Assembly: GCA_049968235.1 (NCBI GenBank)
Contig: JBMFRC010000011.1
Location: 35,251-99,250 of the forward strand
Origin: Candidatus Hydrogenedens sp.
GTDB taxonomy: Bacteria; Hydrogenedentota; Hydrogenedentia; Hydrogenedentales; Hydrogenedentaceae
Reading direction: 5' to 3'
DNA: 64,000 bases
This document shows, piece by piece, positions 7,649-63,430 of this stretch (the stretch's first letter is position 1; each line of letters opens with the position of its first letter). The notes beneath the pieces were generated by a model that worked only from the letters and a program-made list of their open reading frames with translations, had not been told where the DNA came from and did no database searches. A program made the translations under genes and the position numbers.

Positions 7649-10255
7649 TCATATAACTTTTTCTTCTCTCCTATCCACATTGAAGATTATTTCATTATTA
7701 TCGTTTGTATCAATGTGGACATGATCACCTTCTCGGATGCCCTGAGAAAGGATTTGCATTGCCAGAGCATCCACGACCTTACGCTGGATTAGGCGTTTTA
7801 ATGGTCTTGCTCCAAAAACGGGGTCATAGCCTTCTTCCGCGAGTAGTTCTTTAGCACTATCACTTACAGAAAGTCTGATTTCTCTATCCGATAATCGATT
7901 TATAACCTGATTTAATTGCAAATCAACAATTTGTCGTATCTCTTCTTTCTTCAACGGTTGGAATAGAATAATATCATCAACACGATTTAAGAATTCAGGA
8001 CGGAAATGATTATGAAGAATATTTGTTACATACTCAACCTGTTTCTCATAAGGCATGTTCGTTTTCTGGAATACTTCACTGCCTAAGTTTGATGTCATGA
8101 TAATAATTGTGTTTCTGAAATCTACTGTTCGACCTTTTCCGTCTGTTAATCGTCCATCATCAAGCAATTGTAGAAGGACATTGAATACTTCGGCGTGTGC
8201 TTTTTCAATTTCATCCAGAAGAACTACACTATAAGGTTTTCTTCTTACTGCTTCTGTAAGTTGTCCTCCTTCTTCATATCCGACATAACCGGGAGGTGCA
8301 CCAATAAGTCGTGCTACGGAATGTTTTTCCATGTATTCGGACATGTCAATCCGTATCATTGCCTGTTCATGGTCGAACAATAACTCCGCTAAAGCACGTG
8401 CCAGTTCTGTTTTTCCCACTCCTGTGGGTCCAAGGAAAATAAAAGAACCTATAGGACGATTGGGGTCTTTCAGTCCGGCTCTTGCTCTACGGACAGCATC
8501 GGACACAGCACGGATACCTTCTTTTTGTCCTACTACACGATGAGAGAGTCGTTCTTCCATATTTATTAATCTTTGCATTTCACCTTCCAATAGACGGTCT
8601 ACGGGAATTCCTGTCCAACTGGATACTATTTTGGAGATATGTTCATCGGTAACTTCTTCACTTAGAAAACTTCCGTTCTTTTGTATTTCCTCTAACTCTT
8701 TCTTTCTCAATTCTAATTCTTGTCTTAAGTGGTTCAATTCTCCATAGATAATTTCTGAGGCTTTTCCTAAATCACCCTGACGCTGTGCAATTTCAGATTG
8801 TCGTTTTGCTTCTTCAATGCGGGCATTAATTTCGCGGATTTGGTTTATTACCGCTCTTTCTGTTTGCCATTTTGCCTTTTTAGCGTTTAATTCTTCACGA
8901 ATTTCGGCAATTTCTTTTTCGATGGCTTCTCGTCTTTCGACACCTGACTTTTCCGTTTCTTTTTTTAATGCCAGATGTTCTATTTCTAATTGACGAATCC
9001 TTCTATCAAGCACATCAATCTCGTAAGGCATACTATCAATTTCTATCCGTAATCGGGAGGCAGCTTCATCAATCAGGTCAATCGCTTTATCCGGCAAAAA
9101 TCGGTCTGTGATATAACGATGGCTTAAATAAGCAGATGCAACAATGGCATCATCACGAATACGAACTCCGTGGTGTACCTCATATTTTTCTTTAAGACCA
9201 CGGAGAATAGCAATAGTATCCTCAACATCAGGTTCCTCTACAATAATTGGCTGAAATCTTCTTTCCAATGCAGGGTCTTTTTCAACATGCTTCCGATATT
9301 CATCGAGGGTTGTTGCCCCTATACAATGGAGTTCTCCGCGTGCTAAGGCGGGTTTTAACATGTTGGATGCGTCCATTGCTCCTTCGGCGGAACCCGCACC
9401 TATAAGTGTGTGCATCTCATCAATGAACAGGATTATATTCCCTTGAGACTCCTGGATAGTAGAAAGAACCGCTTTAAGTCGTTCTTCAAATTCACCACGA
9501 AACTTACTTCCAGCAATAAGAGCAGATAGATCTAAAGCATGAATTCGTTTGTTCTTTAATGATTCAGGGATATCTCCCGAAACTATTCGTTGTGCTAAAC
9601 CTTCTACTATGGCTGTTTTTCCGACACCGGGTTCGCCAATAAGCACCGGGTTATTTTTTGTTCTTCGGGATAAGACCTGAATCACTCTTCGTATTTCTTC
9701 GTCCCTACCAATAACAGGGTCTAATTTTCCTACCCGGGCTAACTGGGTTAAATCTCTACTAAACCGTTCCAGAGCATCATAGGTAGATTCCGCATTGGGG
9801 TCATCTACGCGTTGATTTCCTCTTACTTCTTTCAACGCAGATAATAGGGAAGTTTCCGTAATACCTAAATTTTTTAAGATTTTTCCTGCATGGTTCGTTT
9901 TTTCTCGAACCATACCTAACAGGACATGCTCGGAACTTAAATATTGGTCTTTTAATGTTTGGGCAAAATTCCATGATGTTTCTAATACCTGTTGAAGTTC
10001 ATAGGACAGATTGGGATTATGAAGACCCGATGAAATATGTGGAAGTTTCTCCATCTCTCTATTTATCGAAGCATTTATCTGTCCTTTTGAAAGCCCTAAT
10101 CTCTGTAGTATTGGAACAACTGCTGAATTTTCTTTCGTGATTAATGATGTTAGTAAATGTAAGGATGTAATTTCAGGATGTCCTTTATTTGTAGCTAAAT
10201 CAAGGGCTTCCGATAATGCATCCTGTAAAGGTATAGTTAATCTATCAAATCTCAT
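7649..10255 (-). CDS. clpB: ATP-dependent chaperone ClpB
   Basis: Clp N-domain repeats, two AAA+ modules with Walker A motifs ([16 protein letters not shown]), long coiled-coil middle domain between them, 868 aa. RBS AAGGAGG before the ATG. Confidence 0.95.
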
Positions 10256-10291
10256 AATTTATTACCTCCTTCTTTTTATTTATTTTTTATT

Positions 10292-10307
10292 AGCAATTGG
10301 TGTGCCA
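10292..10307 (-). promoter_or_regulatory. sigma-54 (-24/-12) promoter upstream of clpB
   Basis: On the clpB coding strand the sequence reads TGGCAC-ACCAA-TTGCT, with consensus GG/GC spacing, about 35 nt upstream of the clpB ATG. Confidence 0.5.
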
Positions 10308-10385
10308 GATTAAAAAGTAGATTTTCTGCTCATTTTACATAATCTTTGTTTCAAAAAGAGATTTGTTTTGTAACACTGTTCCAGT

Positions 10386-10427
10386 TTAAAACAAAAGAGG
10401 CAAACCTTTTTGCAAAGATTTGCCTCT
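10386..10427 (-). terminator. rho-independent terminator downstream of the outer-membrane protein gene
   Basis: 9-bp inverted repeat AGAGGCAAA / TTTGCCTCT followed (on the minus strand) by TTTTGTTTT. Confidence 0.55.
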
Positions 10428-10447
10428 AATAATTACGACCTATTAAA

Positions 10448-12013
10448 TTAGAATTTAAGGACTGTCATCCAGAAGATATATCCTGCATCGTTATTGTCTG
10501 AACCGCCAGAGAAATCTGTCCCATTTCCTTGAATATATGCTCCTTGTGCTAATCCATCACCAACGAATAGGTAATTTCCATAGAGCATAAACCAGAGGTC
10601 TTTGGAGTAGTTGTATCTAATCCATGCGGCGATTTCCCAACCTATATCACTTTCTCCTTCGTCAGTCCAGAAACTAAGTAATGGTGCTGCGTAGAATTTT
10701 CTCCCCAATACCTTAAATGTTTTGGGTGGGTCAAATGGAGAAACAATCCCATCATAAGCACCGTGCACATGGACTAAAATTTTATCTGTTGGTTTGACTT
10801 CAAACCCTAACTGAACCTGCCAGTAGTTTGATAACCAACCATTATCATTAACAGTGGGCAAATAGTTTTTATCGGAGAATAGACGATTAAATGAATGACT
10901 TGCTTCAGGTTCATAAAATGGATTTAACCAATCCCAGAAATCAATGCTTCGGTTGTCATGCCCCTGGAAATATACACCCAGAGTATAGATTCGTGGTGTC
11001 CACTTTATATCCTCAAAGGTATAACCCACCGTCAGTTCTGCACCTAAATCACCCCAATGGGCACTATCATCACCATAAAGGAAGCCACCTATGGGCTTAA
11101 AGGTTGCACCTAAAGAATCTGCGTCACCAAACTGGTATGCCAATTCTAAATCATAATCGAAACCAGTGGATTTTCCAAATGCACGGACACCTACTGTATG
11201 TAATTTTGTAACGCCATAATCATCACGACCGACTATATCTTCAGCAAATTCCATAATAGGATTTCCCGTAGTGTCGTGTGGACTTAAGCCATCTCTGAGA
11301 AAATACCAGTACGCCGAAACTGTAAGTGGTTTCCATCCTGCATAAGTCCCATAAATACCATAGAAATCTATATCCCCATCCTGTTCAATCTGGAATCGGT
11401 CATTAACTTTGGATGCGAATGCATCAACGGTCCAATCTCCTTGTTTATAAGTTAACCGAATGGCGTCATAGGAAGAATATTGTGATGGTGTTAACATGTT
11501 GGTTACTAACCAACCTTTGCCCATAATTAAATCCTGGCGACCTACGCGTAATGTTAAAGGAGATCCAAACAACTCACGAACTTCTACATAGGCTTGTTCA
11601 ATTTCTACATCATCATTAGAATTTGCTCGTGTATCTACTCCTGTAACATAATCTCGCGAACGGAAATCTTCACCCCAGATATGCCAATCATAAAATTCGA
11701 TAAAAGCAGATACATTATCCGTAAAATCTGCTTTGAAATTCAGTAACACAGAAGTTTCATACCTTGTCCAATCGGAACCCTGGTCATCCCATTTGTAAAT
11801 AGAAGAAATCCGATTTCCTCCGACAGGTCTTTTTGGAATAAACGCAGGTGGTATCCTTTCCGTTCTCGGTGCAAATGTGTTTATATACCAGCGTCCCCGA
11901 ATTCTCAATTCTCCCCCAACTGAGACGCTTTGTAATTCAGCAACCGCTACGGATGTAATTGTTACACATAGAATAAATACACATATCCCCTTTGCCAAAA
12001 GAGATTTGTTCAT
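10448..12013 (-). CDS. outer-membrane beta-barrel protein (putative porin/export channel)
   Basis: Signal peptide MNKSLLAKGICVFILCVTITSVAVA, alternating amphipathic beta-strand pattern rich in Y/W/G/D, and a C-terminal aromatic residue (…TVLKF) typical of BAM-dependent OMPs. Confidence 0.5.
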   Translation of the reverse strand: MNKSLLAKGICVFILCVTITSVAVAELQSVSVGGELRIRGRWYINTFAPRTERIPPAFIPKRPVGGNRISSIYKWDDQGSDWTRYETSVLLNFKADFTDNVSAFIEFYDWHIWGEDFRSRDYVTGVDTRANSNDDVEIEQAYVEVRELFGSPLTLRVGRQDLIMGKGWLVTNMLTPSQYSSYDAIRLTYKQGDWTVDAFASKVNDRFQIEQDGDIDFYGIYGTYAGWKPLTVSAYWYFLRDGLSPHDTTGNPIMEFAEDIVGRDDYGVTKLHTVGVRAFGKSTGFDYDLELAYQFGDADSLGATFKPIGGFLYGDDSAHWGDLGAELTVGYTFEDIKWTPRIYTLGVYFQGHDNRSIDFWDWLNPFYEPEASHSFNRLFSDKNYLPTVNDNGWLSNYWQVQLGFEVKPTDKILVHVHGAYDGIVSPFDPPKTFKVLGRKFYAAPLLSFWTDEGESDIGWEIAAWIRYNYSKDLWFMLYGNYLFVGDGLAQGAYIQGNGTDFSGGSDNNDAGYIFWMTVLKF

Positions 12014-12175: not shown

Positions 12176-12761
12176 ATGGTTGCAGTAAATTCTGTTATGT
12201 TACCTTTAGGAACTGAAACACCGGATTTTTGTTTAAAAGATATAACAGGCAAAATGGTACAAAGAGATAATTTTCGAGGACAAAAAGGTCTTCTTGTTAT
12301 GTTTATATGTAATCATTGTCCATTTGTAAAACATATTCAAAATGAATTGGTAAAACTGACCAATGAATACCAGTCTAAAGGAATAGGCATTGTCGGAATA
12401 AATTCTAATAATACAGAAAAGTATCCCGAAGACTCTCTGGAAATGATGAAGGAGGAAGTTGTAAAAGCAGGATATACTTTCCCCTATTTGTATGATGAAA
12501 CACAAGAAGTAGCAAAAAAATACAAAGCAGCATGTACGCCTGATTTTTTTTTTATTTGATGGAAACTTTAAATTGGTATATCGGGGTCAGTTCGATGATT
12601 CACGCCCGGGCAATAACAAACCCGTAGATGGCAAAGATTTGAGAAATGCATTAGATTGTTTACTGGAAGGAAAACCTTTACCGGAACACCAAAAACCCAG
12701 TATGGGATGCAATATTAAATGGAAACCGGGAAATGAACCCGAATACTTTTTGAATCGGTAA
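12176..12761 (+). pseudogene. thioredoxin-fold thiol-disulfide oxidoreductase (TlpA/AhpC-TSA-like) interrupted by a +1 frameshift in a T10 homopolymer
   Basis: ORF 12176..12559 carries CNHCPF (CxxC) and ends ...TPDFFFI* inside a run of 10 T (12544..12553). The ORF 12573..12761 in the next frame continues with the expected ...LVYRGQFDDSRP block. With 9 T the read-through is PDFFLFDGNFKLVYRGQ, a canonical thioredoxin-family sequence. Confidence 0.6.
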
Positions 12762-19205: not shown

Positions 19206-22200
19206 TTACTTAAGCCCACCACAATAACCATCCTCTTCTTCAGGACATATTCTGTAACCACCCATGTTAAAGAACTGTATTAACCGCAATAATTCATTAA
19301 GGCCAATACGCCAATCTTGTGGAGCATAATCGCTGGTATGCGGTGGACAATTGTGGAATGAATCATTTCTTCCAGGGGCATATCCATCTTCTGTCGAACC
19401 TTCACAATGATACCCAAAGGAGTTAAATAGTTGAATAACGCGAAGTAGTTCTCCTATTTCAAATTTCCAATTAAAGTTTCTATCCGCAGAATGTATTCCA
19501 TGTGGGATTTCTCCTTCTGGCGTGCCTTCCGCAACACCTTCGGGTATGCCCTCTGGTGTCCCTTCTACAATACCTTCTGGCTGTCCCTCGGGTATGCCTT
19601 CTGGCGTGCCTTCCACAACACCTTCGGGTATGCCCTCTGGGGTTCCTTCAACGATACCTTCCGGTGTCCCTTCTACAACACCTTCTGGCTGTCCCTCGAG
19701 GACACCTTCGGCTGTACCTTCTAAGACACCTTCCGGTGTCCCTTCCGCAACGCCTTCGGGTTGTCCTTCCGGTATCCCTTCTGCAACACCTTCCGGTTGT
19801 CCTTCGGGTGTGCCTTCAACGACGCCTTCTGGGGTACCTTCTACGATACCCTCCGGTTGTCCTTCGGGTATGCCTTCGGGAGAGCCTTCTACTGTTCCTT
19901 CACCTTCAGGAGAAGGTAAGAAATCGGAGCAGTCAAGAACGCCATTATCATTCTTATCTGCAACATCAAACTGGTCTTGTGTAATTTTTGAACTCAAAGC
20001 ACGCACTTCCGTTAGAGTTAATTCATTATCACCATTCGAATCGAGTTTGGGTAGCAAATTAAATATGGAACTTACTGCTGTAAATTCTTCAAAAGTTAAT
20101 TGATTATCCCTGTTCTTATCTACCAGATACCATACGCCAGCAATAATTATATCACTCCAACCTGTCAGGGATTTAAATTCGCTTTTTGATAACAAACCAT
20201 CGCCATTGGTATCTCCAAATAGGAGCATAATCAGGAAATAATGTTCAATATCATCAATATCACAGGTAGGAGGTTCCCCTTCTATAACACCTTCCGGGAT
20301 GCCTTCAGGAGTACCCTCAACTATACCTTCACCTTCAGGTATACCTTCAGGAATACCCTCTTGTGTCCCCTCTGGTGTACCTTCCGGGGTGCCTTCCGGG
20401 GTGCCTTCAGGTGTTCCCTCTGGTGTGCCTTCCGGGGTACCTTCAACTACACCTTCGCCTTCAGGCAATACAAAGTCATTGCAATCAAGAACACCGTTTT
20501 GATTTAAATCCACTGCATTTAACTGGTCCATAGTTATATTGGAATTCAGGTTTTGCAATTCTATAAGCGTAAGGGCACCATCGTTATTTCCATCTAATCC
20601 TGGCAACAGGTTATACAACCACTCCACCTTAGAGAACTCTTCAAGAGATAACTGATTATCTCCATTCGTATCAACGGCACTCCATAATAATAGGACAGTA
20701 TCACTCCAACCTGTAATGGCTTTAAGTTCTTCTTTAGATAATAATCCATTCCCATCTGTGTCGCCGAACATAATCAAGATATAGTAGTAATGTGTAATAT
20801 CATCAATATCACAGGGTGGTTCACCTTCAAAAGTCCCCGGACAAGGTGGACAACCACCACCGTTCAGGGTCTGATTAATATCCAGTGCAGAAAGAATAAA
20901 GGTATCTATATCCGTAGGTGCAAATACATAGGCTTTATACTCACCTATATTACAGACTTCATCAAAATCCGGGTCACCGGCGGAAGCAAGGTATTGTCCT
21001 GCGGTTAAATCATATCCGTTTAATGTGAATGTGCCCCAGAACATTAATGTATCAATCACATTCACAATAGAATTGATAAACGATTGTTCACCTGTAGTAA
21101 GGACCCCAGCAACAACATTGATAAATGTTGTGTTCGAGAAAATCGTGCTTAATAATGGAATAGAATCCCATTTGCTTTGAGCCACAACACGATTATTCAT
21201 ATATGCGTTTTTCACACAGCAGAAAATAGGCAATTCCGGATGTGCAAGAATATAATCTAACAATCTTGCCTGTGCAACATCATACATACCATTACCATCT
21301 ATATCCGCTGTATCGGGATTTACGCTAAGGAAAGAAGCAATGCCATATAAACTGCGTAATGCTGTTTCAAACCCCGCATTTACTGCAGTTTGATTGCAGT
21401 TATCCCAGCACCATTCAGCATAACAAGATTCTGGAAGTGGACCCATAATATCGATGCAGTCGAGATAGCCATTGCCATCAATATCATGTTGATTAAATTG
21501 GTCTTGTGTAATTTTGGAACTCAATTGCCTTATTTCAGTTAAAGTTACCTGATTGTCGCCATTCGAATCGAGGTTTGCAGGTAAAAGTCCACCCAAACGA
21601 TTGCTGGCTACAAATTCGTCAAAGGACATAAAACCATCACCGTTTTTATCAATTATCCACCATCCTAAATCTAAAAGGAACCCTGTTACAAAGGCTTTTA
21701 ATTCATTTTTTGTTAACTTACCATCACCATTTGTATCACCAAACATTATTAACAATGCGAAATAGTTTTCATCAGAACGCATATTACAGGGAGGTGGACC
21801 TCCACCTTCGCCTTCACCTTCAACGGTTCCTTCTGCCCCACATGCGGGACAACCACCATAATAATCTGTAATACTACTATTAATAGCCGCATTCACAAAT
21901 GCATCAAAGTCCGCAGGTGTGTTCACAACCCATGCTTTGTATTCACCAATATTGCAGACACCGTCCAAATCCGCATCACCTTTGGCATTCAGATAAACAA
22001 TATTTGAGCCATCCAATTCTAATAAGGAAAGGTCGGGTAAGTTAGGAATTATCCAATTCAACGCTGATAGAATAGTATTAATAATTGCTGTGTTCCCCAT
22101 TGTTGCCAGTGCTGCGAAGAAGGTTTTCATACCTTCAAGGTCTGGTGGCGTTCCTAAATAGGATGGCCAGCCTGTCTGTATGGCAAGTGCTAACGCTTCC

Positions 22201-22574
22201 ACTTTCAAACGATTGCCTGCATACGCCCAATATATACAATTACGAGTGGGTATCCCACCAATTAATGAAAAACTTCCCATAATTGTATCGAATAAACGTG
22301 CCTGGGCAGTATCTTTCATTCCATCAAAATCTAAATCAAGATTATCTGGATTTCCTCCAATTAATGGGATTTTCGCATATAATTCCCGCATTGAATTTTC
22401 AAAACTTTCAGTATATACAGGACCGGGTATTAAATTATTGCAATTAGGAATATTGCAATAATCCACTTCTGCATCTGTTTGTGCAACTGATGAAGAAGAA
22501 AAAACAAAACATACACTCATGATAAGGAACAAAGTTCCTATGTATATTTTGCTTGTATTAATCTTAATGTTCAT
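19206..22574 (-). CDS. giant secreted/cell-surface protein: three EF-hand/dockerin-like Ca-binding modules, Pro/Glu/Gly (EG-x-PEG) tandem linkers, duplicated Cys-containing C-terminal motif
   Basis: Signal peptide MNIKINTSKIYIGTLFLIMSVCFVFSSSSVA. Three paralogous modules, each with FGDTNGDG(K/L)L(T/S)K.E(L/F)K, D.NGDNQ(L/V)(T/S)L.E and D.N.NGVLDC loops (D-x-D/N-x-DG). Two long runs of (P/V/I)EG-x-PEG repeats. C-terminus carries two copies of ...(I/L)GELLR(V/L)IQ(L/F)FN..GY..C. Confidence 0.7.
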   Translation of the reverse strand: MNIKINTSKIYIGTLFLIMSVCFVFSSSSVAQTDAEVDYCNIPNCNNLIPGPVYTESFENSMRELYAKIPLIGGNPDNLDLDFDGMKDTAQARLFDTIMGSFSLIGGIPTRNCIYWAYAGNRLKVEALALAIQTGWPSYLGTPPDLEGMKTFFAALATMGNTAIINTILSALNWIIPNLPDLSLLELDGSNIVYLNAKGDADLDGVCNIGEYKAWVVNTPADFDAFVNAAINSSITDYYGGCPACGAEGTVEGEGEGGGPPPCNMRSDENYFALLIMFGDTNGDGKLTKNELKAFVTGFLLDLGWWIIDKNGDGFMSFDEFVASNRLGGLLPANLDSNGDNQVTLTEIRQLSSKITQDQFNQHDIDGNGYLDCIDIMGPLPESCYAEWCWDNCNQTAVNAGFETALRSLYGIASFLSVNPDTADIDGNGMYDVAQARLLDYILAHPELPIFCCVKNAYMNNRVVAQSKWDSIPLLSTIFSNTTFINVVAGVLTTGEQSFINSIVNVIDTLMFWGTFTLNGYDLTAGQYLASAGDPDFDEVCNIGEYKAYVFAPTDIDTFILSALDINQTLNGGGCPPCPGTFEGEPPCDIDDITHYYYILIMFGDTDGNGLLSKEELKAITGWSDTVLLLWSAVDTNGDNQLSLEEFSKVEWLYNLLPGLDGNNDGALTLIELQNLNSNITMDQLNAVDLNQNGVLDCNDFVLPEGEGVVEGTPEGTPEGTPEGTPEGTPEGTPEGTQEGIPEGIPEGEGIVEGTPEGIPEGVIEGEPPTCDIDDIEHYFLIMLLFGDTNGDGLLSKSEFKSLTGWSDIIIAGVWYLVDKNRDNQLTFEEFTAVSSIFNLLPKLDSNGDNELTLTEVRALSSKITQDQFDVADKNDNGVLDCSDFLPSPEGEGTVEGSPEGIPEGQPEGIVEGTPEGVVEGTPEGQPEGVAEGIPEGQPEGVAEGTPEGVLEGTAEGVLEGQPEGVVEGTPEGIVEGTPEGIPEGVVEGTPEGIPEGQPEGIVEGTPEGIPEGVAEGTPEGEIPHGIHSADRNFNWKFEIGELLRVIQLFNSFGYHCEGSTEDGYAPGRNDSFHNCPPHTSDYAPQDWRIGLNELLRLIQFFNMGGYRICPEEEDGYCGGLK
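19495..19925 (-). repeat. coding tandem repeat: about 18-nt units encoding (T/I/Q)PEG-x-(V/A/L)EG linker
   Basis: Periodic ccttc(t/g)gg... DNA. Generates multiple spurious antisense ORFs in the track (19491..19724, 19502..19984, 19522..20103). Confidence 0.7.
20280..20470 (-). repeat. coding tandem repeat encoding EGTPEG x6 and related units
   Basis: Protein segment PEGEGVVEGTPEGTPEGTPEGTPEGTPEGTPEGTQEGIPEGIPEGEGIVEGTPEG. The antisense ORFs 20241..20507 and 20299..20502 are repeat artefacts. Confidence 0.7.
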
Positions 22575-23123: not shown

Positions 23124-23260
23124 TTCAAAACTCCTCATATATATATTATAACATATAAACACATAAAATAAATATCAAATTTGATGTTTTTTTTGTTAAA
23201 ATATTTTTGGAGTTTTTTATTTATTTTTTAAGAAGTATTTTTAATTATGGGATTTTGAGA

Positions 23261-24781
23261 ATGAATTTAGAAGCAAGGCAATTTTTGCAACAAAGGCAGG
23301 AATTACAATTATCGTTGTTCCAACAGCAATCATTACAAATACTACAAATGTCGACCATCGAATTAGAACAATACATTGTACAGGAGGCTGAAAGTAACCC
23401 ATATCTTGAAATAGAGTATAAATCATTAGATAGCGAAGTAGAATCAAATCTCCCTCTTGAAGATTCAGAATTATCTTCAACAGGTATAAGCAAGGATCAT
23501 CTCTTTGATAATGATACTACTTATACTCAAGATGGAACCATTGATATGAAGTCTGAGGAGCAATATGCAGATATAACAGAAGAAAAAGATGATATGGCAG
23601 AATTATGGGAGCATGAATACAATAGAACAAATACAAATACGGACCTGAGTTATAACCCGGACATAGATGAATGGGTAGAAAGTAAATTTAATAACATTAA
23701 AAGTCAGGAGACCCTTAGAAGCCACTTGATGAAACAATTATATATTGAGTTTAATGACCCCCAAGAAATCCAGATAGGTGAAAGTATTATAGCTAGTATT
23801 GACTCTCGCGGATATTTTGTTGGAAATATAGAAGATATATCTAAAGAATTTGATGTTACACCTGAAAAGGTCGAAAAAGTTTTGAAAAGAATACAGGGAT
23901 TTGACCCTTCCGGCGTAGGAGCAAAAGATGTAAAAGAATGTTTGCTAATTCAGATTAATCAAATATATCCTGACAATATCCTTCTGAAAAAATTGGTAGA
24001 AGAATATTTTGATGAACTTACCCATCGACAGATTCCCAAAATATCTCGGGGATTGAAAATTGAGCCTTATCAGGTAGAAGCATTGATTGACTTATTAAAA
24101 ACCTTAAATTTGTTTCCTGGACATTTGTTTCCGGAAGAACCAAATAATATCATCCCTGATGTTATTGTAAAATTTACCGAAGATGATGGACTTGCTATTG
24201 AAATACATGATAAGCGTCTTCCCGAAATAAAATATGTGGAACCTATAAAAAAAGAACAGATAAAGATATTACCCAAAGAAGAGAAAGAGCAGATAAAAAA
24301 ATATAAAGATTCGGCAATTCGATTAATAAAATGCCTTGAACTGAGAAAAAGTACCTTATATAAGGTTGCAAGAGAGATAGCAATTTTTCAAGAAGAGTTT
24401 ATGCGTAAAGGAGTTGATTATTTAAAACCATTAACTTATAAAACCATTGCAGACCGTATTAATATACATGAATCAACAATCTCCCGTTGTATTGCGGGTA
24501 AATACATGGCTACCCCACAAGGAATCTTTGAATTCCGTTATTTCTTTTCAGGGGGCATCAAAACAAGTGAAGGTGAAAATGAAAAATCATCGCGTACAGT
24601 TCAGAGCATCATCAAGAGAATTATTGAGGAAGAAGACAAAACAAAGCCTTTAAGTGACCAGCAAATCGCTGAATTCATTCTAAAAAAGGAAGGAATAAAA
24701 ATTGCACGGAGAACTGTATCAAAATATCGGGAGGCAATGAATATTCCTAATGCTTTTGAACGGAAAGTTTACAAGAAGTAA
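23261..24781 (+). CDS. rpoN: RNA polymerase sigma-54 factor
   Basis: Region I Gln/Leu-rich N-terminus (LQQRQELQLSLFQQQSLQILQMSTIELEQYI), acidic region II, C-terminal HTH and RpoN box ARRTVSKYRE. Start set at the ATG giving MNLEARQF (Met19 of the track ORF). Confidence 0.9.
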   Translation: MNLEARQFLQQRQELQLSLFQQQSLQILQMSTIELEQYIVQEAESNPYLEIEYKSLDSEVESNLPLEDSELSSTGISKDHLFDNDTTYTQDGTIDMKSEEQYADITEEKDDMAELWEHEYNRTNTNTDLSYNPDIDEWVESKFNNIKSQETLRSHLMKQLYIEFNDPQEIQIGESIIASIDSRGYFVGNIEDISKEFDVTPEKVEKVLKRIQGFDPSGVGAKDVKECLLIQINQIYPDNILLKKLVEEYFDELTHRQIPKISRGLKIEPYQVEALIDLLKTLNLFPGHLFPEEPNNIIPDVIVKFTEDDGLAIEIHDKRLPEIKYVEPIKKEQIKILPKEEKEQIKKYKDSAIRLIKCLELRKSTLYKVAREIAIFQEEFMRKGVDYLKPLTYKTIADRINIHESTISRCIAGKYMATPQGIFEFRYFFSGGIKTSEGENEKSSRTVQSIIKRIIEEEDKTKPLSDQQIAEFILKKEGIKIARRTVSKYREAMNIPNAFERKVYKK

Positions 24782-29672: not shown

Positions 29673-29758
29673 ATACCAAATTTTCATGCTTATGATCTTT
29701 TTATGTTAAAATATATTTGGTATTATTTTATCTAATACATAAAGCAAGGATATTTTGG

Positions 29759-32700
29759 ATGAAAGATTTATCTCTAATTTATAAGATGATAGGTAAAAAA
29801 AATTCGTATTCTTTTCTTTTTTCATTATTAATTTTTTTCTTTTTATTTATTTGTTCGGGATTTTCAGAAGTAAATACGGGGCAAAAAACCGTAGAAAAAC
29901 AGGGGATATTAAACATTACTCAAAGTCTCTCACAAAATCCGGATTGTGCTATAGATTCTTTTCTTGATGTAACTGTTGAGTTAACATACACAGGAGAAGA
30001 CCCCCTACTCACATTAGGTCTAAGGGAAATAGTGCCAGAAGGACTTGTTTACGAAGAGATTATAAGTGGTTCCGCACCTCCACTCCAACCTTCAAGAGGG
30101 GCTTTTGGAACCTTAGAATTTGGTTGGATTTTTGTTCCCTCTTTTCCAGCCTCTTTTACGTTTCGTTTAAGATTTGCACAACCTATTAGTGGTAATCAAT
30201 TTATTACAGGAATTGGTATTTTTGCATCATTTGGAGACCCTCAGGAAACTGAACCTGTCATTTCCTACTTTGACTGTCCAACTATTGAAGGTCAAACCGA
30301 AGGAGAAGGGATAGTCGAAGGTGAGGGGCAAATTGAAGGAGAGGGAATAATCGAAGGAGAAGGGAGCATAGAAACAGTATATTTAAATATATCATCAAAA
30401 TCAGGAGATATATATGCTCCCGAACAAGAAATGGAATTTGAAGTTAATATTTCGTATTTAAATCCTCTGGAAATCACTGCCTTAGGAGCAACGGTATTTT
30501 TGCCTGAGTATTGGCAATTTGTTAAATTTACTGCGGGTTCTCCTCCGCCTATTTATTATTTCGATACGGAAACAGGGAAAGCAGAATTTGCATGGATATT
30601 TCTTCCATCTGGAGGAATTACTTTTTCCTTTTCTGTCCTTGTTTCGCCTGAAACAGAGGGTATTCAGGAAATATCCGGTTATGGGATATATAGAACAACG
30701 GGAGAACCAATCACCACAACTATTTCGAAAATATATTTAACACCTGTCCCCAAACCAGACCTTACTTTGCTTTCGGGAATAGTTACACCGTCAAACCCTT
30801 TTTCCCAGGGGATTATATCAATTAACTACACGGCAAAGAATACAGGTTTTGTAAATATTGACAACAAAAGTTGGAGTGATTGTTTTTACTTATCTAATGA
30901 TGAATGGCTTGATGAAACAGATGTTGAAATAACCTGTATCACCAATAATACTTCTGTTGCGGTTGGCGGACAATATTCAAATTCATTAAAAGCAAAATTA
31001 CCTTCTTCTGCATTTGGAAATATGTATCTTCTTGCTTACCTAAATAAGACAAAGACTATTTATGAAGAATCAAGGGACAATAATGTTGGGGTTATAGGAA
31101 TTATTCAAATACAAGCCAGAGAATATGATTTTCGACTAACTACAGGTATAACAGAAGAGGATGTAGGCACACCTATTCCTATCAAAATATATGCGTATAA
31201 TCCTGAAACCCTACAACCTGCTGTAAATAAACAAATCGTTTTGCAAATTGCTCATCGAGGATTCTCAAAAACTTACACTTTCACTACTGACCAGAATGGG
31301 GAAATAAATTATACATATTTCCCTATATCCAACACAGAAGGAGGGATATATAGCATATCTATCAGAGACCCAAGGGAAGAAGATTATCCTATTACTGAAG
31401 AAGTCTTATTGCGAGGACTTGCGATAACCCCCTCCCACTATTTTCTTGAGGTTATACCTAACAAAACATATACCATTCCCTTTAATATTATCAATTTAGG
31501 GGATACGGAAGAAAAGCAATTATCATTCATGATAACAGGAATACCTCCTGATTGGAATTATGATTATGTTATTCCTTCCTCAATACAGGGACAATCTAAA
31601 GAAACTTGTAAACTTATCCTTTATTCCAAGCCAACAACACAGAATAGCTTCCCTATAATGCTTAATTTACAAAGTAATTCAAAAACTCTTGCAACCGCTC
31701 AATATGATATTCTACCCAAACCCTATCAAACGGTAATAACATCTATTCCTGAAGAGGTTTCTTTACCTTTACTTCTCGAGAAAACTCAGTTTTATACGAT
31801 AGAACTAAAAAATCAAGGAGGAAAAGATTCAGGACCCGCTCGAATACAAATCGAACCTGAAAACCCGAATATTCATTTAGTTACTCCAAACACAGTTTAC
31901 AATATTCCAGCAGGTTCAAGTTATTTCGTTTCATTACAGGTAGGAATCCCATTTATAGAAATTCCAGAACCTATAGAGACATCCCTATCTATTCGTTTTG
32001 AATCGGGATTAAATGTGAGCATTCCTATAAAAGTTATTGAGGATACGACAAAAAGTTTAACAATAAATGTATTTAACAAATATACGAATGAAGCTATCCA
32101 TAATGCTTCCGTTTCTATCGTTAGTGAAACAGGTATTCTTTCTACTTCTCAAATCAATAATGATGGAATAGTTGAAGTTAATAATCTACCTGAACCTCCT
32201 TTTTCTATTGTAATACTAAGTGAGGGATTTGAAAGCCAGACCTATTTTATATCAAATTTAAAGAGCAATCACGAAATGATTGATATTTATTTAGAACCGT
32301 TCTTATCTAAACAATTCTGGTCTTACACAATCGATAATAATCAGAAGCTATATCTACTATCAGTATCCAATAGTTCTGCTCTTGAACCAGACAACACTTC
32401 TGTATTAACAATATCGCCAGGTTATATTCCTTTTATTACAACAGAAATATCTCATAATTCTACACTTTCCATTACCAATCAAGGGATTAAACCTTTATAT
32501 GATGTTTATTTATATCCATTCCAAACTGACTTATTAAATATACAGTATCCTGTTCAATACTTAGGAACAATAGAACCGCAATCTTCTGTTAATATTCCTG
32601 TCCTTTCACAGATATCAGAATCATTTGATTTTGATTCCTCGTGTTCTTCATCGATCTTGACGGGTATCATTTTTTCGGAACAAACTAACAATTCGGATAT

Positions 32701-35700
32701 ATCCCAATTTATGGTAATGCCTTTATGGAATACAGAAGTTTTATGTCCGGATTTTACTCCTATCTATGGGGATTTTTATCAAATAAATAGAATAAATCCT
32801 GATACAACCATTGTTCCAGTAAACATTCAAATATCCCTGCCAGATAATCAATCCAATCAAAATGTACCTATTCTTTCCTACGCAACCGGGCAAATGACCT
32901 TAGCCACAGGAGAAATTCTACCCATTGTAATGAAAACTGCTACTCGGACAGGGCTTTATGAGCAAATAGATATTCAATGGCAAATTCATAATGCGGAAAA
33001 CAATGAGGATATAACTTCTCTATTCCAGATATTTGAATTATCTAATTTTGAGAAAACAGATTTGTTTAATAATATAGAGAAAAAACAATGGTTACTTTAT
33101 CCCTTGCATGAATTTTGGGAAAACCCGATATCGGAAATTCGATTATTCGCACAAATTCATATTATTTCATTACTGGGGACATGGGATATATCCTCTCCCC
33201 CGCTACCTTTGAAGATTCTTTCACAACCTATACTTATGGAACATATATTTGCTCCTCAAATTCACGAATTGCAAATTTCTTCCAGTGCGGATAACTCAGG
33301 AGAAACGGTTCTACCTTTAGCGATTCTTATTTCTCCAACAGATAATATTAATCTCCCTATAAAATTTGAATGGGAGAATATTCAATATTTACATGAAACA
33401 GGAAATATTGCTTCCTTATCCTTAATCCAAACGGCAATAAATGGAATAGGAACGCAATATCAACAAATCACATATAACAACATTTCTTTGCAGAAAGAAA
33501 AAACCAACTCTTATTTGTGGTACTTTTTATCTCCACCTCTTTCAAATAAATGGCAGTTAGTTTCTCGATGGACTTACAAAGACAATAAGGGTACTCTTTT
33601 ACCCCTTATTACCAGGGAACAATATCATGATTTACTGCATACTATTGAAGTTACAGGAGAAAATGCTTCAATAACAACTGGATTACTTAGTAATGATGAT
33701 AATGATGAACAGAGAATACCTGATATTATCTATTTGCCGGATGGAAAAACCTTAAGTATATCTACACCCTCCAATCCTATCTGGGTGTCTATAAATAATT
33801 CCCACAGAGAATATGGTATTGTCTATAGTTCTTCACAACAGTCTGATTATGTTTATTTGCATTCCAATTTTCCGGAGGATGTTCCTGAAGATGCCGTTAT
33901 CCTCCGTATCCTTAGAAGCGATTCAACTGTTATTCCATCTGCCAATTATTGGGTTAGTAAATCTATGAATATGAGTCATAAACATGACCCTGTAAAACCT
34001 TCCTTACATTTTGTTGATAAATCGGGCTACAACTCATATATTGTGGAATTTCAATCCGAATCGTTAGAGAATAAGCCTCCTATCGCTAATGCAGGAGAGG
34101 ACATAACAAATGTATATCGTCCCTCATCTATAACTCTTGACGGGTCTGGGTCCTATGACCCGAATGGAGACCGAATTAATTATTCATGGCGTCTTATCAG
34201 CAAACCTCTTGAGAGTTTTGAATATCTAAGAAACGCAGATACAGCAAATCCCATTTTAATTCCAGACCTTCCCGGAACTTATATTGCACAACTTATTGTT
34301 TCTGATGGTTTTGCTCAAAGTGAACCCGATACGGTTGTTATTGAAGTTGTTAATCGTTTACCGGAGATTGTAATTAATGCTCAACAAAAAGCAAGACCTC
34401 GCGATATCGTTGTCTTAGATGCATCATCCGTAGTAGACCCTGATGGAGATGAAATAGAATTTTTATGGAAACTGGCAACCAAACCCGATGGTAGTCGTGT
34501 ATCACTACAGGGAGTTTTTAATAATACAATAACAATTACACCGGATGTATTGGGTCAATATGAATTTATCTTATACATATCAGATGGCTTTGACAACTCA
34601 TTTGCCCATTGGAAATTAGATGTTTACAACCATCTCCCTGAAATTGCAATCGGGTTTCCACCGACTGTTTATTTAAATACAAATGTATCTATTTCTGCAC
34701 GGGATACTTTTGATATTGACAACGACCCATTATCTTATCAATGGAGATTGGTTTCTGCACCGGTGGGAAGCAATACAATACTTAGTTCTTTTACTCAGCC
34801 CGAAACCAGTTTTGTATCCGATAAAAGAGGCACTTATACATTAAAACTTGAAGTTTTTGATACTTATGAAAAAACAGACAAGACAATTTCTTTACAATGT
34901 GTTAATAGGAAACCTCAAACAATTGTAAATCCCAGTGCTATTGAAGTTCCACATGGTAAAACGGTTATTTTCGATGCTACGCAAAGTTCAGATTTAGATA
35001 ATGACCCACTCACTTTTAATTGGGGACTTCTTTCCCGTCCTATATTAAGTAGTGCGGAAATTTATTTAATTCAAAACAATATAGCTGGGTTAAAAACAGA
35101 CGCACCTGGAAAATATAGTGTAACCTTACAAATAAACGATGGATTTGAATCGGGTGAGATAGTAATATCTCAAATCACAGCAACCAATAATCCTCCAGAG
35201 ATACAATGTCCGGAACAACCTATTCCAGGTTCAGTAGGACAACCTTTAACAATACTATTACCCGAAATAAATGACCCGGAACAGGACCCTATCACATATT
35301 CATGGGAAATTATTTCAAAACCAGTAGAAAGTATGATAGGTCTCATTAACTCTGTAGAGCCTGCATTTACATTCACACCTGACCGTAAAGGAACTTATGA
35401 AATTCAAGTTATAATATCCGACGCATGGGGAGGTAATACATCTTGTGTTATTACAACAGAAATTACCAATCAACGCCCTGTGGCGGTAATTCAATCCGAG
35501 ACGCAGAGTTTTATAAATACTCCTGTATCTCTATCAGCAGAAAGTAGTTATGACCCGGATGGGGATGTTATAAAAGATTATCAATGGACAATTATCAGCA
35601 AACCACAGGGAAGTTTTGCTCAATTGTCCAACCCTACAGGTGTTACAACACAACTGATTCCTGACAAACACGGCAATTATCAGGTGCAACTTCAAATTTA

Positions 35701-37576
35701 TGATGGTAATATGTGGAGTAATCCTGCCATAACAACAATCACCACGGAAAACCGTCCACCTGTAATAACTGTCATTGCATCTGAATATCTTGAAATTGGG
35801 GCTTCTAATGTTTTAGATGCTTCTTTAAGTTATGACCCGGATGGAGATGAGCTTTCCTTTAACTGGAAACTTATCGATAAGCCCAAACAAAGTAAAACGG
35901 AATTAAATAGCGATAACGAATCTATTTGTTCCTTTATACCCGATTATCCAGGATACTATTCTATTGAATTACTTGTCTCAGACCCATATTCTTCTGTATC
36001 TCGTTCCGAAATCGTTCTCCGAACCTTTAATCTTCCACCGATAGCAATCATATCTGCACCTCAAATAATAAAAGTGGGAGATGAAGTAGTATTAGATGGG
36101 ACAAACAGTTATGACCCGGATGGAGATTTGATTACATACCAATGGCAATTATCTTTTCGCCCTAATGATAGTCAAACTACTTTAAGTTCATTAACAGAAC
36201 CTATAACACAATTGTATATTGATAAAGCGGGAACTTATACTATCGAACTTCAAGTCAACGATGGAAAAACGACATCGGATATAAGTACTATCTCCCTCTC
36301 AACAGGAAATGTTGCCCCTACTGCTGTCGTGGAAAAAGATAAAAATGCTGTTGTGGGAAGACCATGTTATCTCGATGCAAGCGCCAGTTTTGACCCTAAT
36401 AACGATGAGTTAGTTTACATCTGGACATTCATATCCCGACCTGATGGAAGTCAGGCAGAAATTTTTGAAACGAATTCCCCCAATCCTTACTTCATACCCG
36501 ATGTCGAAGGTAATTACGAAATACAATTAATTATTTCTGATGGGTACCTGTTTAGTAAACCTGTTGTTATCCGTATTAGTACCACAAACAATCCTCCAGT
36601 AGCACAATTAAAACAAGATGAGTTCCAAGTATATGTGGGGGATACTGTTATTATTGACGGTTCAGATAGTTATGACATAGATAATACTTCTATTTACTAT
36701 GAATGGATATTATTCTCAAAACCTGAAGATAGTAAACTCACAATTCAAAATGCTGACCAACCTATTATTACATTAAACATAGACAAAAAAGGGTTCTATC
36801 AGGGAACTCTTGTTGTTAATGATGGATTTTTAAGAAGTAATATAGTAAATTTCCAGATTACATGTATAAATCATCCTCCTATTGCTATTATCAAAGGACC
36901 TGAAACTGCATTTATTGGAGATACAATAACCCTGGATGGCTCGGATAGTTACGATTCTGACATGGATGTATCTGAATTAGGGTATAAGTGGTCTATTGTT
37001 TCGATGCCAACAGGGAGTTCTGTTACACTGTTAAATCCAAACTTAAAAGTTATTAATTTTATGGTGGACATAGACGGAGTTTATGAATTTCAACTTATTG
37101 TAAATGACCAGGAAACCGATAGTAGCCCCGTAACTCACAAGATAATTACAACCTGTAATAAACCTGCACATCCATCAGGGGTTTATGCAACCGATGGAAT
37201 TTACCCTGACAGGATATTTATTTCATGGAATTCTTCACCGGGGGCTGTGGAATATCGTGTTTATAGAAATGATGAAGATAACCTTGCCTCTGCCGTCCCT
37301 ATATCACCATGGACAGGTAACCTTTATTATGAAGACACAATAACTATAGATGTTCCGGAACCCAGTAAAACTGCTTGTGGATGTTCTGCTAATTGCAATG
37401 AAATGTGCAATCCTCTGGAAACAACCATAACGAAATTTTATTGGGTCATTGCAAGAATTAATGAAAACTGCGTCAGCGAATTTAGTAATTCGGAAAGTGG
37501 TTCTATTACGGTTTCTTCTTCCAATCAAAAGTTACCGAACTTTATTTGCAATATTTTAAGAATTTTCATGAAGTAA
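29759..37576 (+). CDS. giant (about 2600 aa) secreted/cell-surface protein: N-terminal EGEG-x-xEG acidic repeat, beta-rich regions, 11 tandem approx. 95-aa Ig-like (PKD/cadherin-like) domains, FN3-like domain, Cys-rich C-terminus
   Basis: Start at MKDLSLIYKMIGKKNSYSFLFSLLIFFFLFICSGFSE (signal-peptide-like; AAGGAT RBS 8 nt upstream). EGEGIVEGEGQIEGEGIIEGEGSIE repeat. Eleven repeats sharing (P/L)P.(I/A).(I/A)...........V.LD(G/A)S.S.DPDGD.(L/I).(Y/F).W.L.S.P..S...L........F.PD..G.Y...L.V.DG. C-terminal GAVEYRVYRNDED FN3-like segment and CGCSANCNEMCNP. Confidence 0.7.
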   Translation: MKDLSLIYKMIGKKNSYSFLFSLLIFFFLFICSGFSEVNTGQKTVEKQGILNITQSLSQNPDCAIDSFLDVTVELTYTGEDPLLTLGLREIVPEGLVYEEIISGSAPPLQPSRGAFGTLEFGWIFVPSFPASFTFRLRFAQPISGNQFITGIGIFASFGDPQETEPVISYFDCPTIEGQTEGEGIVEGEGQIEGEGIIEGEGSIETVYLNISSKSGDIYAPEQEMEFEVNISYLNPLEITALGATVFLPEYWQFVKFTAGSPPPIYYFDTETGKAEFAWIFLPSGGITFSFSVLVSPETEGIQEISGYGIYRTTGEPITTTISKIYLTPVPKPDLTLLSGIVTPSNPFSQGIISINYTAKNTGFVNIDNKSWSDCFYLSNDEWLDETDVEITCITNNTSVAVGGQYSNSLKAKLPSSAFGNMYLLAYLNKTKTIYEESRDNNVGVIGIIQIQAREYDFRLTTGITEEDVGTPIPIKIYAYNPETLQPAVNKQIVLQIAHRGFSKTYTFTTDQNGEINYTYFPISNTEGGIYSISIRDPREEDYPITEEVLLRGLAITPSHYFLEVIPNKTYTIPFNIINLGDTEEKQLSFMITGIPPDWNYDYVIPSSIQGQSKETCKLILYSKPTTQNSFPIMLNLQSNSKTLATAQYDILPKPYQTVITSIPEEVSLPLLLEKTQFYTIELKNQGGKDSGPARIQIEPENPNIHLVTPNTVYNIPAGSSYFVSLQVGIPFIEIPEPIETSLSIRFESGLNVSIPIKVIEDTTKSLTINVFNKYTNEAIHNASVSIVSETGILSTSQINNDGIVEVNNLPEPPFSIVILSEGFESQTYFISNLKSNHEMIDIYLEPFLSKQFWSYTIDNNQKLYLLSVSNSSALEPDNTSVLTISPGYIPFITTEISHNSTLSITNQGIKPLYDVYLYPFQTDLLNIQYPVQYLGTIEPQSSVNIPVLSQISESFDFDSSCSSSILTGIIFSEQTNNSDISQFMVMPLWNTEVLCPDFTPIYGDFYQINRINPDTTIVPVNIQISLPDNQSNQNVPILSYATGQMTLATGEILPIVMKTATRTGLYEQIDIQWQIHNAENNEDITSLFQIFELSNFEKTDLFNNIEKKQWLLYPLHEFWENPISEIRLFAQIHIISLLGTWDISSPPLPLKILSQPILMEHIFAPQIHELQISSSADNSGETVLPLAILISPTDNINLPIKFEWENIQYLHETGNIASLSLIQTAINGIGTQYQQITYNNISLQKEKTNSYLWYFLSPPLSNKWQLVSRWTYKDNKGTLLPLITREQYHDLLHTIEVTGENASITTGLLSNDDNDEQRIPDIIYLPDGKTLSISTPSNPIWVSINNSHREYGIVYSSSQQSDYVYLHSNFPEDVPEDAVILRILRSDSTVIPSANYWVSKSMNMSHKHDPVKPSLHFVDKSGYNSYIVEFQSESLENKPPIANAGEDITNVYRPSSITLDGSGSYDPNGDRINYSWRLISKPLESFEYLRNADTANPILIPDLPGTYIAQLIVSDGFAQSEPDTVVIEVVNRLPEIVINAQQKARPRDIVVLDASSVVDPDGDEIEFLWKLATKPDGSRVSLQGVFNNTITITPDVLGQYEFILYISDGFDNSFAHWKLDVYNHLPEIAIGFPPTVYLNTNVSISARDTFDIDNDPLSYQWRLVSAPVGSNTILSSFTQPETSFVSDKRGTYTLKLEVFDTYEKTDKTISLQCVNRKPQTIVNPSAIEVPHGKTVIFDATQSSDLDNDPLTFNWGLLSRPILSSAEIYLIQNNIAGLKTDAPGKYSVTLQINDGFESGEIVISQITATNNPPEIQCPEQPIPGSVGQPLTILLPEINDPEQDPITYSWEIISKPVESMIGLINSVEPAFTFTPDRKGTYEIQVIISDAWGGNTSCVITTEITNQRPVAVIQSETQSFINTPVSLSAESSYDPDGDVIKDYQWTIISKPQGSFAQLSNPTGVTTQLIPDKHGNYQVQLQIYDGNMWSNPAITTITTENRPPVITVIASEYLEIGASNVLDASLSYDPDGDELSFNWKLIDKPKQSKTELNSDNESICSFIPDYPGYYSIELLVSDPYSSVSRSEIVLRTFNLPPIAIISAPQIIKVGDEVVLDGTNSYDPDGDLITYQWQLSFRPNDSQTTLSSLTEPITQLYIDKAGTYTIELQVNDGKTTSDISTISLSTGNVAPTAVVEKDKNAVVGRPCYLDASASFDPNNDELVYIWTFISRPDGSQAEIFETNSPNPYFIPDVEGNYEIQLIISDGYLFSKPVVIRISTTNNPPVAQLKQDEFQVYVGDTVIIDGSDSYDIDNTSIYYEWILFSKPEDSKLTIQNADQPIITLNIDKKGFYQGTLVVNDGFLRSNIVNFQITCINHPPIAIIKGPETAFIGDTITLDGSDSYDSDMDVSELGYKWSIVSMPTGSSVTLLNPNLKVINFMVDIDGVYEFQLIVNDQETDSSPVTHKIITTCNKPAHPSGVYATDGIYPDRIFISWNSSPGAVEYRVYRNDEDNLASAVPISPWTGNLYYEDTITIDVPEPSKTACGCSANCNEMCNPLETTITKFYWVIARINENCVSEFSNSESGSITVSSSNQKLPNFICNILRIFMK
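34076..37160 (+). repeat. 11 tandem, diverged coding repeats (about 285 nt each) encoding Ig-like domains
   Basis: Repeat starts at protein segments PPIANAGEDI, LPEIVINAQQ, LPEIAIGFPP, KPQTIVNPSA, PPEIQCPEQP, RPVAVIQSET, PPVITVIASE, PPIAIISAPQ, APTAVVEKDK, PPVAQLKQDE, PPIAIIKGPE. Copies are divergent at the protein level, so they are ancient rather than recent duplications. Confidence 0.7.
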
Positions 37577-46039: not shown

Positions 46040-46639
46040 ATGATAAATAAGGATATTAGAACTTCCAGTAATGAAATACAAGACAAAGAACTTGTAGAAC
46101 GAATAAAAAAAGGTAATGAAGAAGCCTTTGATATTTTGATAAAAAGATATTATAACATGGTTTATTTCACCTGTATAAAAAAATTATATAATCCGGATAT
46201 TTCCAGAGAGGCAACACAGGATATTTTTATAAAAGTATGGAAAAGTATAAATACATGTGTAGATGGGACTTATTTTGTTTCCTGGCTTATGACGATAGCC
46301 AGGAATCATTGTATAGACATTTTGCGGAAAGAAAGAAACCGCAAAGAACGCGAGATTTCTATAGAATCCTTCGAAAATTCAGATAATATCTCCCCGTCTG
46401 CTTTTGAACATTCAAGTATAGACAAAAGTCTCGAATTTGAATACTTGAACATTCTCGTTGAACAACTTCCGGAACCCCAACGTATTGTATTCCAAAAAAG
46501 ATTGGAAGGTTGGAGCGTTCAAGAAATAGCGGATAACTTAAATTGTCCATTAGGCACTGTTTTGAGCAGGTTTTCTTTAGCCAAAAGAAAAATATATGAA
46601 CAGATGAAAAAGGCAAATATAACATTTAAGGAACTTTAA
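46040..46639 (+). CDS. ECF-subfamily RNA polymerase sigma-70 factor
   Basis: Region 2 (…YYNMVYFTCIKKLYNPDISREATQDIFIKVWKSI…) and region 4 HTH (…GWSVQEIADNLNCPLGTVLSRFSLAKRKIYE…). Confidence 0.8.
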   Translation: MINKDIRTSSNEIQDKELVERIKKGNEEAFDILIKRYYNMVYFTCIKKLYNPDISREATQDIFIKVWKSINTCVDGTYFVSWLMTIARNHCIDILRKERNRKEREISIESFENSDNISPSAFEHSSIDKSLEFEYLNILVEQLPEPQRIVFQKRLEGWSVQEIADNLNCPLGTVLSRFSLAKRKIYEQMKKANITFKEL

Positions 46640-46676
46640 GATATAAGGATAAGTAATAAATTACAGGGAAAGTAAT

Positions 46677-54708: not shown

Positions 54709-54713
54709 AAACA

Positions 54714-63315: not shown

Positions 63316-63430
63316 AAATACCTTCCTAAATATTTTTTCATATCGAAACAAAATATATCGTAATAAGTATATACGGTTGAGAGATAAGATATAACGGTTA
63401 TTTTTAGAAAAGCAAAAAGAAAAATATATA

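Follow-up and report, generated by a model that had tools for sequence, protein, structure and literature searches.

How is the chaperone gene clpB switched on in Candidatus Hydrogenedens, where the DNA directly ahead of it offers an exact match to the sigma-54 promoter consensus? We examined this question in a 64,000-nucleotide stretch of one Candidatus Hydrogenedens sp. contig (hereafter the window; 36.6% GC), starting from a preliminary description that had placed clpB under a sigma-54 promoter dependent on an enhancer-binding protein (bEBP).

The clpB locus and its -24/-12 element

The features on which the question turns are, in order of coordinate:

7649..10255, minus strand: clpB coding sequence, 868 aa (TIGR03346 and Pfam)
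10265..10271, minus strand: ribosome-binding site AAGGAGG, 9 nt before the ATG, read from the sequence
10281, minus strand: transcription start predicted from standard sigma-54 geometry, 12 nt past the C (10293) of the -12 element
10292..10307, minus strand: putative sigma-54 promoter core, with the -24 element TGGCAC at 10307..10302, a 5-nt spacer ACCAA, and the -12 element TTGCT at 10296..10292
10396..10427, minus strand: intrinsic terminator of the Alginate_exp gene, a 14-bp stem followed by TTTGTTTT
10448..12013: upstream Alginate_exp outer-membrane gene, ending at 10448
23207..24781, plus strand: rpoN (sigma-54), TIGR02395 at 402 bits, with Sigma54_AID, CBD and DBD domains and the RpoN box ARRTVSKYR

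The open reading frame at 7649..10255 scored 1330.7 bits against the ClpB model TIGR03346 (cutoff 1232.1) and 872.9 bits against the type VI ClpV model, under that model's cutoff of 884.95. Its Pfam domains (Clp_N, AAA, AAA_lid_9, AAA_2 and ClpB_D2-small) comprise two AAA+ modules, and its N-terminus aligns with homologues from residue 1. The closest proteins belong to Candidatus Hydrogenedens and Hydrogenedentes MAGs, at 94, 89, 88, 80 and 79% identity, followed by a large set at ~70%.

Upstream of clpB, the outer-membrane gene whose 3′ end had been placed beyond 10330 in fact stops at 10448 and is followed by a strong terminator hairpin (10427..10396; -20.2 kcal/mol, z = -5.8; 1 found by the scan against 0.1 expected), so that read-through into clpB is unlikely and the gene appears insulated. 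Between this hairpin and the promoter lie ~90 nt of non-coding DNA (10395..10308), which hold the candidate enhancer sites described below. An Rfam search of the window detected no rRNA or other family, including any leader RNA element or thermometer family.

Between the terminator and the ribosome-binding site, in an intergenic position and in sense orientation, the minus-strand sequence TGGCACACCAATTGCT (10307..10292) reads TGGCAC-ACCAA-TTGCT, an exact fit to TGGCAC-N5-TTGCW with the -24/-12 spacing given in the preliminary description; the GG and GC doublets are exactly one helical turn apart. The minus strand across this region reads ...aatcTGGCACaccaaTTGCTaataaaaaataaataaaaagAAGGAGGtaataaattATG. 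No other exact match to TGGCAC-N5-TTGCW occurs on either strand of the 64-kb window (0.05 expected; 5 of 100 shuffles yielded one), and the 1-mismatch matches elsewhere in the window fall inside genes or lack the GC. The -12 GC occupies 10294-10293; from its C to the A of the clpB ATG (10255) is 38 nt, where the preliminary description had given about 35. The description of the element is otherwise borne out throughout. From standard sigma-54 promoter geometry we infer a transcription start at 10281 and, with it, a 26-nt clpB leader.

The window also supplies the sigma factor. rpoN lies 12.9 kb from the clpB promoter, matching the 13 kb reported earlier, and is intact, with activator-interacting, core-binding and DNA-binding domains as well as the RpoN box. 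The reading frame is listed from a TTG at 23207; region I (MNLEARQFLQQ...) begins at an ATG at 23258, which is probably the true start.

Searches for other promoter types around clpB were negative. A sigma-70 scan of 10150..10550 returned 0 promoter-like sites against 1.6 in shuffles, using an E. coli consensus that could miss a lineage-specific housekeeping promoter; within that scope the scan agrees with the earlier judgement that no sigma-70 pair in this spacer is as good. The CIRCE operator (TTAGCACTC-N9-GAGTGCTAA) was absent from the whole 64-kb window at up to 3 mismatches. Neither the CIRCE search nor the sigma-70 scan thus gave any sign of HrcA/CIRCE or sigma-70-type heat-shock control at clpB.

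Several other features of the window were recorded in passing. An AhpC/TSA thioredoxin-like gene at 12176..12761 (plus strand) is split into two reading frames, 12176..12559 and 12573..12761. Its relatives are single 194-aa proteins and tblastn places a +1 frame change at a ten-T run near 12543..12552, so that the gene is a pseudogene unless the homopolymer was misassembled. A DEAD/MZB (MrfA-type) helicase gene followed by an overlapping RNase_H_2-domain gene (52405..56102, plus strand) resembles the MrfAB DNA-repair pair. Two large proteins are encoded at 29717..37576 (plus strand; 2619 aa, with PKD, Big_9 and CARDB repeats) and 19206..22574 (minus strand; 1122 aa, with EF-hand repeats). At 46040..47183 (plus strand), an ECF sigma factor gene precedes a 168-aa reading frame with no Pfam match, possibly an anti-sigma factor. 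The window closes on a run of G's (63989..64000), perhaps the contig end.

Conservation of the element among clpB promoters

To place the element in its lineage, we retrieved the DNA surrounding eight graded ClpB relatives by exact-protein look-up. All eight loci carry TGG[C/T]A[C/T]-N5-TTG[C/G] starting 53-68 nt before the clpB start codon, over ClpB identities falling from 94% to 68% and GC contents of 36-62%. In the near relatives redoxin, OMP, clpB, yfhO and lpdA follow one another as they do in the window; at the four loci with 68-73% ClpB identity, GC content is ~58-62% and the neighbouring genes are unrelated.

Further loci came from scanning metagenomes with aligned N-domains of Hydrogenedentes ClpB, clade membership being assigned by blastp of the full ClpB, and nearly all of those whose ClpB falls in the Hydrogenedentes clade carry the element. 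The 35 distinct clade promoters with the element belong to ClpB proteins 65-94% identical to that of the window, in DNA of 36-66% GC, and synteny is lost among them. Anchored on TGGCAC, they yield the consensus TTGGCACG-N4-TTGC, in agreement with the extended sigma-54 consensus. The GG doublet and the A of TGGCA are present in 35/35, the -13 G in 33/35, and the element starts 48-68 nt before the start codon in 33/35. At -12, 11 of the 35 promoters have GT, not the consensus GC (for example L097, L101, L103, L116, L123 and L125); in another four, TC, GA or GG takes its place.

As a negative control, we took 78 clpB loci of other phyla (ClpB ~60% identical) from a full-length ClpB scan of genome contigs. 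None had a match with 1 mismatch or fewer; three had one with up to 2 mismatches, against two on the antisense strand. Because the motif is kept across GC contents of 36-66% and is absent from these 78 loci, it is not a product of chance; judged by this pattern of sequence conservation, selection has maintained it upstream of clpB as a trait of this lineage.

Three AT-rich clpB loci outside the clade, L134 (clpB at 693), L153 (2398) and L164 (3001), also have -24/-12 elements that match perfectly or nearly so. Upstream of these lies a different 13-bp dyad, TGTCAAAATGACA or GCCATAATGGCA, which suggests a related sigma-54 clpB module in another lineage. With good elements at such out-of-clade loci, the arrangement would be wider than one phylum.

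Upstream dyads and candidate activators

Activators of the NtrC family classically act from tandem dyads that are spaced by about two helical turns and centred 85-106 nt ahead of the transcription start; at glnAp2, tandem 17-bp dyads with the NtrC half-site TGCACC lie upstream of a -24/-12 promoter. When the clade promoters were aligned on TGGCAC, a 17-bp dyad, TGTTTC-N5-GAAACA, emerged at offsets that hardly vary, ~-88 and ~-67. A dyad starting 85-92 nt upstream of TGGCAC is among the three best matches in 28/35 clade promoters, and one starting 65-71 nt upstream in 19/35. Perfect copies occur at L097 (TGTTTCAAAATGAAACA) and L123 (TGTTTCGATATGAAACA), and copies with one mismatch at L086, L089, L094 and L103; in most loci, no more than 5% of 200 shuffles of the upstream region matched as well. 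Counting the T of TGGCAC as about -26 puts the dyad centres of GC-rich relatives near -106 and -85, two helical turns apart. In the window, the corresponding matches are:

10377..10393, minus strand: distal candidate UAS dyad TGTTTTAAACTGGAACA, 2 mismatches, starting 86 nt upstream of TGGCAC, centre about -104
10375..10359, minus strand: weaker dyad match TGTTACAAAACAAATCT, 4 mismatches, at the canonical -68 offset
10347..10363, minus strand: proximal candidate UAS AATCTCTTTTTGAAACA, 3 mismatches (the right half-site is good), start 56 nt ahead of TGGCAC

The preliminary description had proposed a search for an upstream activator site 80-150 bp before the promoter; counted from the predicted start, the conserved TGTTTC-N5-GAAACA dyads of the clade fall in about that range as candidate sites. 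The proximal dyad of the window is degenerate and sits ~11 nt (about one helical turn) closer to the promoter than the -65 to -71 dyad of GC-rich relatives; its T5-GAAAC block is invariant in the AT-rich genus.

As a stand-alone motif in the AT-rich window the dyad is not enriched (4 matches against 4.9 expected), and the significance of the clpB dyads derives from their position and conservation. A composite scan, pairing a promoter of up to 2 mismatches with a dyad of up to 3 mismatches at either offset, was run on both strands of 683 kb comprising the window and related loci; of its 35 matches, 34 lie immediately upstream of clpB. As a search for other regulon members it returned only clpB, from flanks that contain no other chaperone genes. 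One further copy of the dyad in the window, TTTTTCATATCGAAACA at 63334..63350 (1 mismatch), is followed by no evident gene.

GC-rich clade loci (for example L096, L114, L121 and L123) share a third conserved element, TAAGTCnTTT...(A/T)TCAA, ~15-35 nt upstream of TGGCAC. It is flanked by the dyads and the -24 element and may bind a bending protein of the IHF type; as an IHF site proper it gives no clean fit to WATCAA-N4-TTR.

Which protein might bind the dyads? Neither an ORF search for GAFTGA nor Pfam scans found a GAFTGA-type activator in the 64-kb window, bearing out the earlier remark that no bEBP gene is visible there, and no such gene was found within 3-4 kb of clpB in clade members or in L081-L090. 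Among loci L081-L170, a GAFTGA gene is present only in L127, whose ClpB lies outside the clade and is 63% identical to that of the window. Here a 455-aa REC-AAA+(GAFTGA)-HTH gene stands directly upstream of clpB; the dyad TGTCTCAATTTGAAACA lies in the 3′ end of this activator gene and is followed by a CGGCAC-N5-TTGCA promoter. The activator gene itself has CGTTGCATATCGAAACA ~45 nt upstream of TTGACA-N17-TATAAT. Its product has near relatives up to 100% identical, and its homologues at 50-56% identity are mostly named Hydrogenedentes or Abyssubacteria. Hydrogenedentes relatives encode many REC-AAA+-HTH_8 proteins, some of which have the dyad at the 5′ end of their own gene.

Four genomic contexts of L127-activator homologues were examined (P0160, P0194, P0137 and P0135). 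In P0160 and P0194, from different genomes with different neighbours, the dyad xGTTTCGATGCGAAACA lies exactly across the gene's own start codon, each copy preceded by TTTTGGTACAAT, which resembles an extended -10; P0137 and P0135, located after dapA-dapB, have no dyad. By coordinate, the dyads at the 5′ ends of NtrC-family genes of Hydrogenedentes relatives are at L171, L172, L173 (7994..8010) and L127 (1317..1333), those of L171 and L172 (xGTTTCGATGCGAAACA) falling exactly across the ATG. The start-codon pattern would fit negative autoregulation by a dyad-binding protein, and the 5′-end dyads are suggestive, and no more, of autoregulation and of which protein activates clpB. With the dyad in only P0160 and P0194 of the four contexts, these proteins are at most candidate orthologues of a clpB activator; that the L127/P0160/P0194 family is the clpB activator strikes us as a possibility short of a probable one.

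Acidic pockets are degenerate in the receiver domains of the candidate activators (LIASSD and LIVESE are examples), which makes the control of these proteins by phosphorylation uncertain. P0160 lies near glnB-amtB, which has its own perfect sigma-54 promoter without a dyad; the glnB-amtB promoter of L171, from a Hydrogenedentes relative, is TGGCACGCAGGTTGCA (11293..11308), a perfect match ~100 nt ahead of the genes that has no TGTTTC dyad close by. A sigma-54 promoter lacking the dyad at glnB-amtB implies that sigma-54 serves at least two separate regulons in the Hydrogenedentes phylum.

The resemblance to NtrC and glnAp2 is close in layout: two 17-bp dyads of 6-N5-6 form, separated by about two helical turns and lying ~80-110 nt ahead of the start, together with candidate activators of the REC-AAA+(GAFTGA)-HTH_8 type. 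It differs from glnAp2 in the half-site (TGTTTC versus TGCACC), in having a chaperone gene as target, and in the degenerate receiver pockets of the candidates.

Proposed sigma-54 control of clpB: precedents, rival readings and meaning

Links between sigma-54 and stress are known from E. coli, in pspA/PspF and a sigma-54 promoter at ibpB, and from HsfA/HsfB-lonD of Myxococcus xanthus. In Chlamydia, a tandem sigma66/sigma54 promoter lies at hrcA-grpE-dnaK (PMC8762339). What these cases share with the proposed control of Hydrogenedentes clpB is that genes of protein quality control are transcribed by sigma-54 in dependence on an activator. In E. coli and Chlamydia, however, sigma-54 is an accessory beside sigma-32 or HrcA, whereas at Hydrogenedentes clpB it appears to serve the sole promoter.

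Closer precedents qualify the preliminary description's view of sigma-54 chaperone control as unusual, a view that is only partly right. In 5′-end RNA-seq of Flavobacterium psychrophilum, a -24/-12 motif with mapped starts, SM4, drives groES-groEL, lon, dnaK, grpE-dnaJ, htpG and clpB (Guerin et al. 2021, PMC9723704, Table 2A). As in Hydrogenedentes, a bacterium that is no proteobacterium has a -24/-12 promoter directly upstream of clpB, which implies that a gene of protein quality control is subject to an activator. In Flavobacterium, a member of another phylum, starts are mapped and a whole chaperone cluster shares the motif, whereas in Hydrogenedentes the chaperone gene covered is clpB, its promoter being predicted from sequence; conversely, a specific enhancer dyad is defined in Hydrogenedentes, and the parts of PMC9723704 drawn on here describe no enhancer sequence for Flavobacterium. 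A 2025 PSSM survey in PLoS One predicted enrichment of sigma-54 promoters at chaperone and Clp COGs in Bacteroidota and Planctomycetota, covering GroEL/ES, IbpA, GrpE, DnaJ/K, HSP90 and COG0542 (the ClpA/ClpB family) (PMC12316311). That survey resembles our analysis in its gene class, COG0542 including ClpB, and in arguing from promoter motifs; it differs in being a single-genome PSSM scan with no enhancer analysis, and it mentions Hydrogenedentes 0 times.

The clade-wide element, its absence from the 78 loci of other phyla and the tandem dyads together support the original proposal that clpB is under a sigma-54 promoter dependent on an enhancer-binding protein. We conclude with good confidence that TGGCAC-N5-TTGCT (10307..10292) works as an activator-dependent sigma-54 promoter of clpB; it is probably the principal promoter of the gene in this organism, if not the sole one. 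Under such a scheme, sigma-54 RNA polymerase would bind 10307..10292 as a closed complex, and a hexameric AAA+ enhancer-binding protein, presumably encoded elsewhere in the genome, would bind the dyads at 10393..10377 and 10363..10347, centred ~105 and ~75 nt upstream of the predicted start (~106 and ~85 in GC-rich relatives). The activator would reach the polymerase by DNA looping and open the promoter by ATP hydrolysis; transcription would then start near 10281, giving the 26-nt leader with its strong ribosome-binding site, and clpB would be switched by whatever signal activates the enhancer-binding protein. By analogy with the sigma-54 chaperone cluster of Flavobacterium, that signal would most likely be proteotoxic or envelope stress.

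Two rival readings deny the element its role as the productive promoter. It might be a non-productive sigma-54 site or a chance match, with clpB transcribed from an unrecognised housekeeping or sigma-32-like promoter; for E. coli, many sigma-54 binding sites are reported that are conserved and yet start no transcript (PMC4591121), the conserved T5-GAAAC block resembles a TTGAAA -35 hexamer, and the housekeeping consensus of Hydrogenedentes may differ from the E. coli one used in our scan. Chance is ruled out by retention of the element across the clade's range of GC content and its absence from the 78 control loci. As a -35 hexamer, the TTGAAAC block was rejected on spacing and on the sigma-70 scan: in the window TAAAAT follows TTGAAA after only 11 nt, and no -35/-10 pair occurs at 16-18 nt spacing. 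The block is better read as the right half of a dyad held at fixed enhancer offsets throughout the clade, and we consider this first reading very unlikely. Still less credence, to the point of being extremely unlikely, attaches to tandem promoters at which the chief effect of sigma-54 holoenzyme is to restrain a sigma-70-type promoter that overlaps its site or lies upstream, as hypothesised for Chlamydia, where sigma-54 polymerase is proposed as a de facto repressor (PMC8762339). The GT found at -12 in 11 of the 35 promoters could alter closed-complex behaviour, but the scan with the E. coli consensus detected no second promoter, and the ~90 nt of non-coding DNA left by the terminator are taken up by the dyads.

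A further alternative accepts a real sigma-54 promoter and reassigns its control: the dyads might bind another regulator, such as a repressor or an accessory or bending protein, or the signal might be unrelated to protein damage (nutrient status or development). The TAAGTCnTTT...ATCAA element between dyads and -24 in GC-rich relatives indicates that more than one factor may bind, and so lends this some plausibility; against it stand the NtrC-family layout of the tandem dyads, the same dyad at the 5′ ends of relatives' own NtrC-family activator genes, and the L127 gene of that family directly upstream of clpB. We regard this alternative as unlikely, and retain activator-dependent sigma-54 transcription of clpB as the best explanation.

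A broader reading can be put forward as a tentative one, which we think doubtful in its entirety: that the Hydrogenedentes phylum, along with a few uncultured lineages near it, relies on sigma-54, not on sigma-32 or HrcA, to respond to protein damage, by means of a dedicated dyad-binding activator of the NtrC family. That activator may have a degenerate, probably non-phosphorylatable receiver and may bind dyads both upstream of clpB and across its own start codon, in negative autoregulation; it might detect unfolded proteins directly or by chaperone titration.

A sigma-54 clpB promoter in Hydrogenedentes overturns no current view. Sigma-54 control of chaperone genes is not new, and Hydrogenedentes clpB adds a lineage to a known pattern. 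For a core chaperone gene such control had been documented in Bacteroidota and predicted in Planctomycetota; it now extends to another deep lineage, within which it is ancient. The novelty lies in conservation across the phylum, in a defined enhancer dyad and in a candidate family of activators. Regulation in candidate phyla without cultured members is almost unknown, and Hydrogenedentes gains here a concrete, testable regulatory module of promoter, enhancer dyad and candidate activators, with a dyad consensus that can be used to scan Hydrogenedentes genomes for the rest of the regulon. If the reading of a sigma-54 damage response is true, the dyad and its activator would constitute a new heat-shock regulator-operator pair.
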